From: a virus
Reading direction: 5' to 3' (one strand)
Length of the DNA stretch: 39,944 nt
UHGV virus genome: UHGV-0147509
The notes below the pieces were generated by a model, which was not told where the DNA came from, made no database searches, and saw only the letters and a program-made list of their open reading frames with translations. Positions 13,581 to 20,046 of the stretch are shown one piece after another; positions within the stretch are counted from its first letter, which is position 1; each line of letters opens with the position of its first letter. The position numbers and the translations under genes were made by a program.

Positions 13581-14549
13581 TTAGTAGGTTATTTTTGTTG
13601 CGAATACTTCGCCTTTTACGATGGCTGTTATGATATTTTTAGCAACATCTTCTGATGCACCAACCTTGATAAGGTCAGCAAGTATTTTGTTATTTACTTC
13701 TTTCCGGTGAGCTTTATCCTTTGCTCTACGCTCTTCTTCTTCCTTGATTCTTTTTTCTTCTGCTATTCTGGCTTGCTCTTTTGCTTCAGCCTCGCGCCGG
13801 ATTCGTTCAGCCTCCTCCTGTGCTTTTCGGCGTTCTGCTTCAATTGCCGCCTGCTTTTCTCTTTCAGCTCGTTCTGCTGCCTCTTTTGCTTCGCTCTGTG
13901 CTCGTTGCTCGGCTTCAATGCGTTCACGCTCTGCACGTTCCGCTGCGGCCTTAGCTTCTGCTTCTCGCCTTGCTGCTGCTTCAATTTCGGCTTTTGCCTT
14001 TGCTTCGGCTTCAGCTCTGGCTTTCTCTTCAGCTTCTTTTTTTAAGCGTTCTTCATGCTCTCGCTTTTCCTGCTCCGCTTTGAGTCTTGCATCTTCTCTT
14101 TGGCGGTCAAATTCGCGATCCATCAAAATCGCTATTTCATGGTCAGACTCAATTTGCCTTGCGAGAGCTTCAGCTGCTGCCTTAGCTTCTTCTTCGGCTT
14201 TAATACGCGCCTGCTCCTCCTCATAATCAGTAAGAGGCTGGCGCGCCTTGGCTTTCAATTCATCAAGGCGATCGCGCACTGTCTTGCGGTTGGCATCAAT
14301 TAGCTTTGGAATTTCCTTCAGTTCAGCAACAAGGTCTTTGCCAAGACCATCGAGATATGTTTTCGTCTGCGCAACTTTATACGCCAGAGAAGCGATCTCC
14401 TTTCTGCCCTTTGCCGTTGTGATATCAGGCACAAAGGACATAACTTCACGTTCAACCTTTTGAAGGATTTCTTCAATCTGGTCGGCAGACTGAAATACAG
14501 TCATTGCATTTGCTTTTTCAATAACAACTAAATCTGTTACTTCACTCAT
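13581..14549 (-). CDS. hypothetical early protein with long Ala/Glu/Lys/Arg-rich charged repeat region
   Basis: 322-aa ORF with strong SD GGAGGA before the ATG at 14549; central ~170 aa is low-complexity AEAKAKAEIEAAARREAEAK-type repeat; globular N- and C-terminal ends. Confidence 0.65.
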   Translation of the reverse strand: MSEVTDLVVIEKANAMTVFQSADQIEEILQKVEREVMSFVPDITTAKGRKEIASLAYKVAQTKTYLDGLGKDLVAELKEIPKLIDANRKTVRDRLDELKAKARQPLTDYEEEQARIKAEEEAKAAAEALARQIESDHEIAILMDREFDRQREDARLKAEQEKREHEERLKKEAEEKARAEAEAKAKAEIEAAARREAEAKAAAERAERERIEAEQRAQSEAKEAAERAEREKQAAIEAERRKAQEEAERIRREAEAKEQARIAEEKRIKEEEERRAKDKAHRKEVNNKILADLIKVGASEDVAKNIITAIVKGEVFATKITY

Positions 14550-16113: not shown

Positions 16114-16821
16114 TTATCCGAATCGCTTGTAATCGATTGACTGCCTAATGAGGACTTTGGCTAGAATGTGAAGTTGCTCTTCTTCACCTTCTTCTATGTA
16201 CCATCGATCATAAGCGGCATTGTCAGAGATGACGGCAAGCCTGTTCTTTTGCATTTGCAGGCGCTTAACGTGCATTGTTTTCCCGTATACAAACACATAA
16301 ATGCCATCGCCATCAAAACAGGTTATGGATACATCAACAAAGATCTCATCTCCCGGATTGATGGTTCCCTCCATGCTGTCACCGCGAACCGTGATGACTT
16401 TTACGCTTTCCTGTGGCCTTCCATTAAATAAAATTCTTGCCTGCTCGGTCGTATATTCAATTGCTCTTATCTTTTCTATAAATTCATTGGAAACCATGGT
16501 TCCTGGCCCGGCGCTCGCCTGAACATCCAATACATCAACACGATAATAATCATTTGATCTTGATAGATGATTTACCGTGATACCGTCATCATCAGCATAG
16601 CCATGCAGATATGCAGCAGTAGTTCCCAGCACCGAAGCCAGAGATTCCATCTTGTCTTTTCTTGGTATTGACTCCCCGTTGAACCATTTACTAATGGCTT
16701 TTGGTGTGACCTTAAGCCTGACAGCTAAATCAGCCTGCCTACCATGCAAAGGTAATCCCGCTTTATCACAGGCCAGCGCAAGCCTCTGCGAGAAAGTTTC
16801 ACGCTCTTTCTGTTGAACCAT
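16114..16821 (-). CDS. cI: CI-type prophage repressor (HTH plus LexA/S24-like C-terminal domain)
   Basis: Start at ATG 16821 (the ORF track extends upstream); HTH region LAVRLKVTPKAISKWFNGESIP and S24-type C-terminal domain with VRGDSMEG and KRL motifs; divergent from cro. Confidence 0.9.
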   Translation of the reverse strand: MVQQKERETFSQRLALACDKAGLPLHGRQADLAVRLKVTPKAISKWFNGESIPRKDKMESLASVLGTTAAYLHGYADDDGITVNHLSRSNDYYRVDVLDVQASAGPGTMVSNEFIEKIRAIEYTTEQARILFNGRPQESVKVITVRGDSMEGTINPGDEIFVDVSITCFDGDGIYVFVYGKTMHVKRLQMQKNRLAVISDNAAYDRWYIEEGEEEQLHILAKVLIRQSIDYKRFG

Positions 16822-16885
16822 AAGTTCAACTATATTAGGTATTGACTGTACTATCAGTTCCGTCATAATATGAACCATAAGTTCA
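16814..16885. promoter_or_regulatory. OR operators with PR (and PRM) promoter elements
   Basis: Two identical 15-bp palindromes TGAACCATAAGTTCA at 16814-16828 (overlapping the cI start codon) and 16871-16885; TTGACT at 16842-16847 and CATAAT at 16864-16869 form a PR-like promoter toward cro. Confidence 0.7.
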
Positions 16886-16900
16886 CCACAGGAGAGAAGC

Positions 16901-17131
16901 ATGAACGAAGTTACGTTTGGAGAAGTTATCAAATCCGTTCGAGTTTCTGTTGTGGCTGATGTTTGTGGACTTACGCCAAAAGCCATCTATAAGTGGCTTG
17001 AGCGTGGTTCTCTGCCGCGTACCGAGTTCACTGGTGAAACCGAATATGCGGATAAGATCGCCAAGGCATCAGGCGGCAAGTACTCAGCAGCACAGATTCG
17101 CCGTATCGGTAAACAGCAGTTTGTTATGTAA
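16901..17131 (+). CDS. cro: Cro-like repressor
   Basis: 76-aa ORF with SD GGAGAG, divergent from cI directly downstream of OR; HTH-like segment VCGLTPKAIYKWLERGSLP. Confidence 0.75.
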   Translation: MNEVTFGEVIKSVRVSVVADVCGLTPKAIYKWLERGSLPRTEFTGETEYADKIAKASGGKYSAAQIRRIGKQQFVM

Positions 17132-17252
17132 TAAAAATGTACTTTTAGTACCGAACGGCCCGGTATACGGTCGGGTGCCCGGCGTGGTCAAGGATGACTG
17201 TCAATGGTGCACGATAAAAACCCAAATTATTTACCTATGGAGATTGTAAGAA

Positions 17253-17549
17253 ATGACACAAGCAAGCTACAGCAAGCCAACACAGCGAGAAATTGATCGC
17301 GCTGAAACTGATTTACTCATCAACCTGTCAACGCTTACCCAGCGCGGTCTGGCAAAGATGATTGGCTGTCATGAATCGAAGATAAGCAGAACGGACTGGA
17401 GATTTATTGCTTCGGTCTTGTGTGCTTTCGGAATGGCATCAGACATCAGTCCGATTAGCAGGGCTTTTAAGTATGCGCTTGATGAAATCACAAAGAAAAA
17501 ATCCCCGGCCGCCACCGAGGATTTTAAGCAAATTGATATGCAATTCTGA
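17253..17549 (+). CDS. cII: CII transcriptional activator
   Basis: C-terminus ...[19 protein letters not shown] resembles recalled lambda CII C-terminus (..KKRPAATERSEQIQMEF); position after cro. Confidence 0.8.
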
Positions 17550-17581
17550 GGGAATTACTGGATCAATCCACAGGAGTCATT

Positions 17582-17728
17582 ATGACAAAACAACTCAGTC
17601 CTTACCAGGACAAAATTCACAAACACATACTACGTGATCGCTTCCTGTCCAGCTTCAAGCAGCCTGGTCGATTCCGGGCTGAGTTGGAAAAGGTGAAGCT
17701 GATGCAGAAGGAGAAAGGTCATGAGTAA
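17582..17728 (+). CDS. hypothetical small basic protein between cII and the initiator gene
   Basis: 48-aa ORF not in the ORF track; ATG preceded by AGGAG at good spacing; its stop overlaps the start region of the downstream gene. Confidence 0.4.
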
Positions 17729-18620
17729 CATATCTAATCTAGCCGAAGCCAGAGAGGCCAGAAGGCTACAACAACCGCATCAAAGCAGCGGTAAGGGGTA
17801 TGCCTTGCTGCACCGTAAAATTATGGATGTGCCGTTTTACAAGGACGCAGAAGCTGCGCATCTGTGGGTTCACTTAATCCTCAAAGCAAAGCATACGCCT
17901 GAGTATGTAATGACTGACGCAGGAGAAATTCTGGTAGGCAGAGGGAAGCTACTTGGCGGTAGAAACTCTCTGGCGTTTGAAACAGGACTCAAACCAGATC
18001 GCGTTCAGTACCTGCTTAGAAAGTTCAAAAAACTCGGCATGATTGACTGGGTTTCACACGGTAAATTCTCAGTTTTCTCGGTAGAGAAATATGACGATTA
18101 TCAGTCAAATTTTGTACCAGCAGATTACCAGCAAATTACCACCTCAAAGCCAGCAATACCAATGCCTGTAAGCAATGCTGTACCAGCAGATTACCAGCAA
18201 ATTACCACAGATAAAGAATATAATAATATTATCTCTAATACTGACGTATTAGAGAGTGCCACAGCAGACAAAAAGTCTGACAAGAAAAAACCTTCCGTCA
18301 GCTGTCAGGATGTTGTCGATGCTTACCACGAAATCCTTCCTGAAGCGCCAAGAATCCGCGCACTGAATGACAAGCGTAAAAACCAGATCCGAACGTTCTG
18401 GCGCAAAGCCGGAGTGATAACCCGCCAGCTTGACGGGCATGGGTTCACGATGCAGGACTGGAGAAATTATTTGAGCTACGTAGGCGAAAATTGTCGATGG
18501 ATGTTCGAAGAGCGTCCAAACCATCAACGCGGAACTGTCTGGCACAAAAAGGGATTTGATTTTCTGCTTAACGATAATACCTACCTGAAAGTTCGTGAGG
18601 GTGAACACGATGACCGATAA
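17721..18620 (+). CDS. replication initiator protein (lambda O / P22 gp18-like)
   Basis: 299-aa ORF with SD GGAGAAAGG; contains the in-gene iteron array (repeated [10 protein letters not shown] in the protein), as in lambdoid O genes. Confidence 0.8.
18114..18250. repeat. replication origin iterons plus AT-rich region inside the initiator gene
   Basis: 29-bp direct repeat GTACCAGCAGATTACCAGCAAATTACCAC at 18114-18142 and 18180-18208 (each with two ATTACCA sub-repeats), followed by an AT-rich stretch at 18209-18250. Confidence 0.6.
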
Positions 18621-20046
18621 TTTTTATGCGCCGCCCCATAGCATCGAGGCAGAGCAGGCGGTGATTGGTGGATTGCTTCTGGATGATGACAGCAGTGAGC
18701 GCGTCCAGAAAGTTCTGGCGATGCTGAAGCCCGATTCATTTTACAGCCGACCACACAAAATCCTTTTCGAAGAAATAACCAGAATGCACCGGGAGCAAAA
18801 GCCAGTAGATGGCCTGACGCTTTTCGATGAACTGGAGCGCAAATCGTTAACGGTGTCTGTTGGCGGTTTTGCTTATATCGCTGAGATCGCAAAGAACACG
18901 CCAAGCGCAGCAAACATCGTTGCCTATGCAATGCAGGTTCGTGAAACCGCAATGGAACGCTACGCCATCAACCGCATGACTGAAGCGATGGAATTGCTCT
19001 ATTCCCGCAACGGAATGACTGCAACGCAGAAGTACGAAGCTATTCAGGCTATTTTCACGCAACTGACAGACCATGCAAAAACCGGATCGCGTCGCGGCCT
19101 TCGCTCATTTGGTGAGGTCATGGAAGACTGGGTTAGCGACCTTGAGAAGCGATTTGACCCGTCAGGTGAACAACGAGGAATGAGCACAGGGATCCCATCG
19201 CTGGACAGGATGCTGTCACCGAAAGGTCTGGTGAAAGGCTCTCTGTTTGTCATTGGCGCTCGCCCTAAGATGGGGAAAACGACGCTATACAGCCAGATGG
19301 CAATCAACTGCGCAGTGCATGAGAAAAAGCCCGCTCTGATGTTCAGCCTTGAAATGCCAGGTGACCAGATACTGGAAAAACTGGTGGGACAGAAGTCAGG
19401 TGTTAACCCGAATATTTTTTACCTTCCGGCGACAAATGACGCTGATGACGGCTATCAGGGTGATTACGATGGTGACTTCAACAGGGCGATCGAAACAGCC
19501 AATCGCTTGAGTGAAATCGACCTGCTTTACATCGACGACACGCCGGGATTATCTCTGGCTCAAATCGTCAGCGAAAGCCGTCGAATCAAGCGAGAAAAAG
19601 GATGTGTTGGCATGATTCTGGTCGATTACCTGACACTAATGACTGCTGAGAAGGCCGATCGCAACGATCTTGCTTACGGCATGATCACCAAAGGACTGAA
19701 GAACCTTGCCAAAGAGCTTGATTGCGTTGTTGTGCTTCTGACGCAGCTTAACCGCGCACTGGAAAGCAGAACCAATAAACGCCCATTACCAAGTGACTCA
19801 CGAGATACAGGGCAGATTGAACAGGATTGCGATTATTGGGTCGGGATCCATCGTGAAGGCGCTTTTGATGACAGTGTTCCACCTGGTGAAACTGAACTAA
19901 TCCTTCGTCTCAATCGTCATGGCAATACCGGCACGGTGTATTGCATTCAGGCAAATGGCGCTATTTATGACACAGACCAACAGTCTGCTGAAATGCGCCG
20001 CCGTGAACGCGAGGAACCGCAGTCCAAGAAGAAAGGAGGATTCTGA
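18610..20046 (+). CDS. replicative DNA helicase, DnaB family (P22 gp12-like)
   Basis: DnaB N-terminal motif PHSIEAEQAVIGGLLLD; Walker A GARPKMGKTT; ATG at 18610 preferred over the track start at 18595. Confidence 0.9.
   Translation: MTDNFYAPPHSIEAEQAVIGGLLLDDDSSERVQKVLAMLKPDSFYSRPHKILFEEITRMHREQKPVDGLTLFDELERKSLTVSVGGFAYIAEIAKNTPSAANIVAYAMQVRETAMERYAINRMTEAMELLYSRNGMTATQKYEAIQAIFTQLTDHAKTGSRRGLRSFGEVMEDWVSDLEKRFDPSGEQRGMSTGIPSLDRMLSPKGLVKGSLFVIGARPKMGKTTLYSQMAINCAVHEKKPALMFSLEMPGDQILEKLVGQKSGVNPNIFYLPATNDADDGYQGDYDGDFNRAIETANRLSEIDLLYIDDTPGLSLAQIVSESRRIKREKGCVGMILVDYLTLMTAEKADRNDLAYGMITKGLKNLAKELDCVVVLLTQLNRALESRTNKRPLPSDSRDTGQIEQDCDYWVGIHREGAFDDSVPPGETELILRLNRHGNTGTVYCIQANGAIYDTDQQSAEMRRREREEPQSKKKGGF

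Follow-up and report, generated by a model that had tools for sequence, protein, structure and literature searches.

orf48 (DUF2740), a conserved 48-codon gene of lambdoid phages whose end overlaps the replication initiator gene

What is a 48-codon reading frame doing between cII and the replication initiator gene of a lambdoid phage, in a slot that phage lambda leaves empty? The question arises from a stretch of 39,944 nucleotides of the virus genome UHGV-0147509 (hereafter, the window), for which an original prediction, drawn from the letters alone, proposed an unannotated small basic frame with a strong Shine-Dalgarno (SD) sequence in the cII-O interval. The answer given below has two parts: the frame is a gene that has been on record for decades, and its most plausible role, to which we assign a probability of roughly 0.3 to 0.4, would be that of the opening cistron in the replication block, coupled to the initiator and encoding a dispensable accessory of the replication module that acts on a target common to different initiators.

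A catalogued gene between cII and the initiator

The region belongs to the lambdoid immunity and replication type, with a leftward repressor, cro, cII, the small frame, an O-like initiator and a helicase in that order (Table 1), and a 12-kb comparison with phage HK022 gives about 97% identity over 65% of the length. The description of the frame in the original prediction stands up well: its coordinates are exact from ATG to TAA, the AGGAG motif lies 5 nt ahead of the ATG, the product (5.8 kDa) is indeed basic, with a pI of 10.1 and 12 lysines and arginines against 6 aspartates and glutamates, and the interval is bounded by cII and the O-like initiator. Lambda has no gene there, as was also claimed, since in alignment lambda O opens at the homologous ATG; the absence of orf48 between oop and O in lambda had already been stated by Hayes et al. 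(2012).

Table 1. Features of the orf48 region, with positions in the window
Feature	Position	Strand	Basis or remark
cro	16901-17131		
cII, upstream neighbour	17253-17549	+	Pfam Phage_CII, 113.9 bits
oop-like antisense RNA, ~78 nt	17494-17571	-	alignment to lambda, P22 and HK97; ends inferred by homology
orf48 Shine-Dalgarno AGGAG	17572-17576	+	sequence; within block common to the lambda O initiation region
pO -10 hexamer CATAAT	17579-17584	-	homology; spans the start codon of orf48 (opposite strand)
orf48/hkaW CDS (DUF2740); basic 48-aa product, predicted hairpin of two helices	17582-17728	+	ORF listing and sequence; ATG start, 48 codons, TAA stop
pO -35 hexamer TGGTAA	17602-17607	-	homology to annotated P22 pO; orf48 codons 7-9
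CGUGAUC (R18-D19-R20), candidate arm of occluding stem	17633-17639	+	predicted pairing with GGUCAUG 17717-17723
Initiator Shine-Dalgarno AAGGAG	17708-17713	+	orf48 codons 43-44; 7 nt before ATG 17721
ATGAGTAA stop/start overlap, 8 nt	17721-17728	+	initiator start over the last orf48 codons and stop
HK022-type O initiator gene	17721-18620	+	ORF; 99% identical to HK630/HK620 O
DnaB-like helicase gene	18595-20046		

The encoded protein is identical in amino-acid sequence (100%) to orf48 of HK022 and to HkaW of HK620 and HK630, and it shares 85% identity with orf48 of P22 and 58% with ORF62 of Erwinia phage Midgardsormr38. It matches the Pfam family DUF2740 (PF10872) at 99.4 bits over all 43 of the 43 profile positions, the curated gathering cut-off being 27 bits, and even P0057 and P0062, two distant members, reach 62 and 93 bits; every residue of the family core, H-K-x-I-[LI]-R-D-[RQ]-x-L ... 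R-[FL]-R-x-E-[LW]-[ED]-x-[VW]-K, is found in the window protein, which also matches the PHROG 1913 HMM (98.7 bits, E = 2.7e-28). Of 5,426 complete E. coli genomes, 400 (~7%) carry the DNA of the gene at an identity of at least 95%, with the product named 'DUF2740 family protein' by RefSeq, and the window copy lies a single synonymous base from the commonest allele (AAG for AAA at codon 37). The HK022/P22 orf48 and the HK620/HK630 hkaW are thus the same gene and differ in nothing of substance from the window copy; the gene order (cII/c1 - oop - orf48 - O/18) agrees as well, and so does the extent of the overlap with the initiator, 8 nt. There is very little doubt that the frame is the known orf48/DUF2740 gene and encodes a real protein.

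It is accordingly not a new gene, having been catalogued for decades as orf48 of HK022 and P22, and the term 'unannotated' holds only in part: it is correct for the list of open reading frames from which the original prediction was made and for some database records, such as those of Stx2 II (NC_004914) and the HK022 RefSeq entry (NC_002166), from which orf48 is left out, but not for HK022 U02466 and P22 BK000583, which annotate it as orf48, for HK620 and HK630, which annotate it as hkaW, or for the RefSeq E. coli genomes. The U02466 entry reads 'sequence well conserved in phage p22; orf48 gene product; unknown', and within the searchable literature, queries that extended to the peptide sequence itself returned no functional study of orf48 or DUF2740, the name hkaW bringing up unrelated text only.

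The size of the frame carries no significance by itself, given the 95 frames of 25 aa or longer to be counted across the surrounding 7 kb; orf48 rises above chance because it is conserved. Conservation in related phages, which the original prediction had named as a check, is borne out by the homologues in HK022, HK620 and P22 and extends to 17 distinct nucleotide sequences diverging by up to 33% of their bases, throughout which the orf48 frame is the only one free of stops. Pairwise dN/dS values fall at about 0.15-0.45; 12 residues are invariant in all 17 sequences, and at five of these (I16, L22, R30, R32 and V38) the distant members L092, L098 and L099 use different codons. On this comparative evidence orf48 is a true coding gene, and the pattern of substitution indicates that its amino-acid sequence is under purifying selection. 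The family is nonetheless narrow: it comprises 55 clusters when grouped at 90% identity and, among 1.84 billion proteins, 17 representatives when grouped at 50%, all from Enterobacterales and their phages, and an HMM search of the whole library returned 17 cluster representatives, all of this one family, together with fragments and repeat noise, yielding no distant functional clue.

Members of the family have a length of about 46-48 codons, which the window copy fits. The order cII - DUF2740 - initiator recurs in P22, HK022, HK630, SEN22, Midgardsormr38 and Klebsiella prophages, and at every locus the gene occupies this early-operon position between cII and O, which lends no support to a virion tail component. 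A 'tail protein' label derived from PHROG 1913 is carried by the RefSeq records NC_002371, NC_008464, NC_019708 and NC_070949; for a 48-aa gene of the early operon it is almost certainly a propagated misannotation.

Nucleic-acid constraint at the two ends of orf48

Both ends of orf48 are shared with other elements. At the 5' end, a 33-nt block (ACTGGATC.ATC.ACAGGAGTCATTATGACAAA) that contains the SD, the spacer and the ATG differs at 2 positions from the initiation region of lambda O, and this near identity implies that orf48 uses a ribosome-binding site already known to work. Lambda O and orf48 thus have SD, spacer, ATG and the first two codons in common by homology, and the oop promoter and RNA lie in the same place, the difference being that the lambda start opens O whereas the one in the window begins a separate cistron of 48 codons, with the start of O following 139 nt on. 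The idea that orf48 is a piece split off from O was rejected, inasmuch as the alignment of P22 gp18 with lambda O begins at the N-terminus of each.

The opposite strand of the same segment carries the promoter of oop (pO), which we placed from the P22 annotation, a five-phage alignment and the lambda numbering (PMC3349717). In the P22 annotation the initial 26 nt of orf48 are covered, on the opposite strand, by the oop promoter, and the terminator of oop lies in the 3' end of c1. By homology the oop transcript of the window would have its +1 near 17571, a single base away from the SD of orf48, and would overlap the last ~55 nt of cII; it is predicted to fold into two hairpins (z = -3.4), with a terminator-like hairpin and T run at 17525-17498. 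A sigma-70 consensus scan missed the promoter, whose -35 is weak, and an Rfam scan of 16500-18500 returned a match at chance level only (E = 0.84), with no family detecting oop or the region. The -35 hexamer lies within an inverted repeat, GTCCT-TACC-AGGAC at 17598-17611, which a terminator scan flagged on the minus strand; P22 has GTCCTG-AC-CAGGAC at this place, and the repeat is not kept in HK97.

How far the promoter dictates the 5' codons can be read from HK97, whose gp53 (53 aa; 2221-2382 of locus L096) is the other small frame found in the cII-O slot. The two frames share the SD, the ATG and an 'MTK' start block, both have bases of the oop promoter inside them, and gp53 likewise overlaps the start of its initiator gene, by 14 nt as opposed to 8 for orf48; their relatedness is confined to the promoter-constrained first codons, gp53 belongs to no Pfam family, and homology between the two proteins was rejected on an hhalign probability of 0.5%. 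In the -35 region TCCTGGTA is kept even in HK97, whose small frame is unrelated, and the bases TACCAGGA, which read Y-Q-D in the window and Y-Q-D/E when HK97 is included, are conserved in the same way; their retention in HK97 argues that the first ten codons of orf48 are constrained by the promoter and not by the protein. The residues 'MTK' and 'YQ(D/E)' common to both frames coincide with the -10 and -35 of the opposite-strand oop promoter, and the pair is a clear case of promoter-imposed codons.

At the 3' end, the last 21 nt of orf48 (codons 43-48) hold both the SD and the start of the initiator gene. With 26 nt at one end belonging to the oop promoter and 21 nt at the other to the initiator region, both under nucleic-acid constraint, one may ask whether the DNA is conserved merely as a promoter plus a recombination linker and is no gene at all, or else whether the PHROG 1913 description, 'tail protein', is right after all. 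Either proposal is scarcely credible. In the middle 100 nt synonymous change exceeds non-synonymous change, the frame is intact in all members and codons are exchanged at invariant residues, all of which speaks against mere DNA conservation; the product of an early pR operon gene lying between cII and O makes a poor candidate for a tail protein, and the label itself seems to be an annotation that has been propagated.

Linkage to the initiator gene

DUF2740 overlaps the initiator by 8 nt (-8) in 91 of 94 loci, the three others being accounted for by one truncated contig, one chimeric record and one artefact of start calling, and the distant members show either ATGGATAA (-8) or a 4-nt ATGA overlap (-4). 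Called initiator starts lying 52 nt past DUF2740 in SEN22 (L094, 3140-3200) and in L103 (4137-4197) look mis-called; we rejected these two as genuine exceptions with a 52-nt gap, the initiator frame being open from an ATG that overlaps the DUF2740 stop. An in-frame fusion of DUF2740 with a DUF4752 protein occurs in Salmonella phage PSP2-22 (L093; ON886116, 'UNVERIFIED_ORG'), where T7-like ligase and RNA polymerase genes stand beside early genes of the lambdoid type; the record looks like a chimeric assembly.

That the gene keeps company with the initiator, and not with its upstream neighbours, is illustrated by the prophage L099 (GCA_004343195.1, 2917-4004), in which a 249-aa frame parts cII and oop from DUF2740 and the DUF2740-initiator overlap stays. 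The insert consists of this 249-aa frame, which has no Pfam match and overlaps DUF2740 by ATGA, and of a 30-aa frame. Since the overlap is conserved and is kept in L099, orf48 travels with the initiator gene and not with cII or oop. DUF2740 is also found upstream in all 80 of the viral contigs with an HK022-type O N-domain, a count to which the near identity of the contigs lends little independent weight.

The nature of the initiator, on the other hand, varies. Initiators of two families with no relation to each other are found behind an identical protein of 48 aa: the Phage_rep_O (PF04492) type, represented by P22 gp18 or by an O of 286 aa with a Toprim primase-helicase after it, and the HK022 type, for which Pfam gave no match; the same protein occurs with DnaB-like or Toprim-primase helicases and with at least four cII types. 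Judged from these combinations, orf48 is indifferent to which initiator follows it. Lambda, moreover, replicates without orf48, from which it follows that the gene is not a core replication function.

Possible roles of orf48

These observations can be assembled into the mechanism that we favour. As an early gene of the pR operon, orf48 would be translated from the ribosome-binding region that lambda uses for O; ribosomes ending orf48 would be delivered to the initiator start at ATGAGTAA by translational coupling, and the frame would, most likely, tune the amount of initiator made, while the conserved peptide would act as a dispensable accessory of the replication module on a target common to different initiators. 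Sequence comparison establishes the identity of the gene, its coding status, the gene order, the overlap and the linkage to the initiator; translation, coupling and any activity of the protein are what we infer here, and the initiator's own strong SD (AAGGAG, with 7-nt spacing) would also permit independent initiation. As to the peptide, AlphaFold2 with the family alignment predicts two helices (residues 7-23 and 28-44; mean pLDDT 79) joined by a conserved Q-P-G turn. Comparison of this hairpin with known structures gave no informative match, Rop included, NCBIfam holds no model that matches the protein, and no relationship to a Pfam family other than DUF2740 was detected; for want of any informative structural or sequence relative, an activity assigned to the protein is a guess.

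The indifference to initiator type would suit a role unrelated to replication equally well. In that case orf48 might be a host-directed or anti-defence early protein, comparable to a 'moron', lodged in a slot between conserved recombination linkers. In its favour, an identical protein stands beside unrelated initiators, helicases and cII types with no co-varying phage partner, the flanking conserved blocks are common to different phages, and the slot is without orf48 in lambda and filled by an unrelated 53-aa frame in HK97, which is what an accessory slot open to exchange would show. Against it, the overlap with the initiator persists even away from cII and oop, the search of NCBIfam returned no match, and no specific host target is indicated; taken together, these points leave a host-directed role fairly unlikely, if worth keeping in view.

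Coupling by way of the overlap raises the converse possibility that orf48 is a purely cis-acting leader, in which the act of translation unmasks or feeds the initiator start and the peptide has no function. The minimum free energy fold of 17560-17770 pairs the initiator SD and AUG with 17633-17644 (orf48 codons 16-22; z = -2.8), and in a 14-sequence consensus the sole long-range stem to survive is the 7-bp CGUGAUC/GGUCAUG, the latter arm including the initiator start codon; the stem is invariant and so offers no covariation. The R18 codon within it is CGT in 17 of 17 sequences, at variance with the other invariant arginines, whose codons vary. The native initiator region is predicted to be less accessible than synonymous recodings in 10 of 11 lineages by codon-usage sampling and, in the same direction, in 8 of 9 by composition-preserving codon permutation, 5 or 6 lineages lying at or below the 6% tail, the lineages being few, related and not independent; the window sequence itself, at a fraction of 0.24-0.26, is not significant. 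The structure predictions are thus suggestive of an initiator start occluded by the native orf48 mRNA, which would bear on the favoured coupling as much as on a pure leader. Another hairpin, CAGCC...GGCUG in the GRFRAE codons, was dropped as a conserved RNA element because neither L098 nor L099 keeps it.

A leader without a functional peptide would accord with this predicted long-range pairing and with the trend toward an occluded start, with a stop/start overlap conserved in essentially all loci, and with the overlap that the unrelated HK97 gp53 also makes with its initiator gene. Against it stand the purifying selection (dN/dS 0.15-0.45) and the 12 residues that remain invariant in 17 sequences despite codon changes, where the peptide of a pure leader would be free to vary, as well as the lack of covariation backing for the structure; we consider it unlikely that orf48 is such a leader.

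Plasmids offer a precedent for leaders of this kind. Leader peptides take part in plasmid replication control in R1, with tap-repA and the antisense RNA CopA, and in the IncI/IncB plasmids, with repY-repZ and Inc RNA. By analogy, the arrangement described here would resemble these systems in that a short frame precedes and overlaps the initiator gene, whose start is predicted to be base-paired, and in that an antisense RNA would end beside the ribosome-binding site of the leader; it departs from them in that the tap and repY peptides are not known to be conserved as proteins, in contrast to DUF2740.

A further possibility is that orf48 is at once leader and protein, its translation gating the initiator through the stem that masks the start codon and its basic hairpin peptide acting in trans. 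The trans target would be a component common to unrelated initiators, for instance the nascent origin complex or a replication factor of the host, and the OOP antisense RNA, which appears to end one base from the orf48 ribosome-binding site, would belong to the same scheme. This combination strikes us as improbable; were it true, lambdoid phages would possess a counterpart of plasmid leader-peptide and antisense copy-number control that the model phage lambda lacks.

The neighbourhood of cII and of the oop promoter, which orf48 adjoins, together with the small, basic and predicted helical hairpin, might instead suggest a modulator of the lysis-lysogeny decision, one that protects CII in the manner of the FtsH inhibitor CIII or that binds the OOP-cII duplex as Rop binds the ColE1 RNAs. 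By eye, an 'LRD...QPG' likeness to lambda CIII can be made out. Homology to CIII was, however, rejected on an hhalign probability of 0.9%, and so was membership of Pfam Lambda_CIII (PF02061), with no match up to E = 10; the same phages already carry cIII, the predicted structure has no match to Rop, and the gene of L099 lies beside the initiator, apart from cII and oop. A function in the lysis-lysogeny decision is on these grounds quite improbable.

As a discovery, orf48 carries low weight, for it is a long-recorded gene with a Pfam family of its own and its absence from lambda had already been noted. It is, nevertheless, a known unknown within one of the best-studied regulatory regions, Shiga-toxin phages are among its carriers, and several reference phage annotations omit it while others mislabel it as 'tail protein'. 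For any genetic approach to the locus it should be borne in mind that mutating the orf48 start codon would also strike the -10 element of the oop promoter.

Some features of the surrounding region deserve mention in their own right. Direct repeats of ACCAGCAGATTACCAGCAAATTACCAC-type units lie at 18108-18208, within the O gene, and are presumably the origin iterons of the HK022-type replicon. The cI-like repressor frame at 16114-16986 (minus strand) is called at 290 aa and runs through the operator region into cro; its true start is presumably an internal ATG. Farther upstream, a 322-aa frame at 13581-14549 (minus strand) contains a long, highly charged segment of low complexity rich in E, A, K and R, and in the related phage mEp234 'TolA' is annotated in the matching region.
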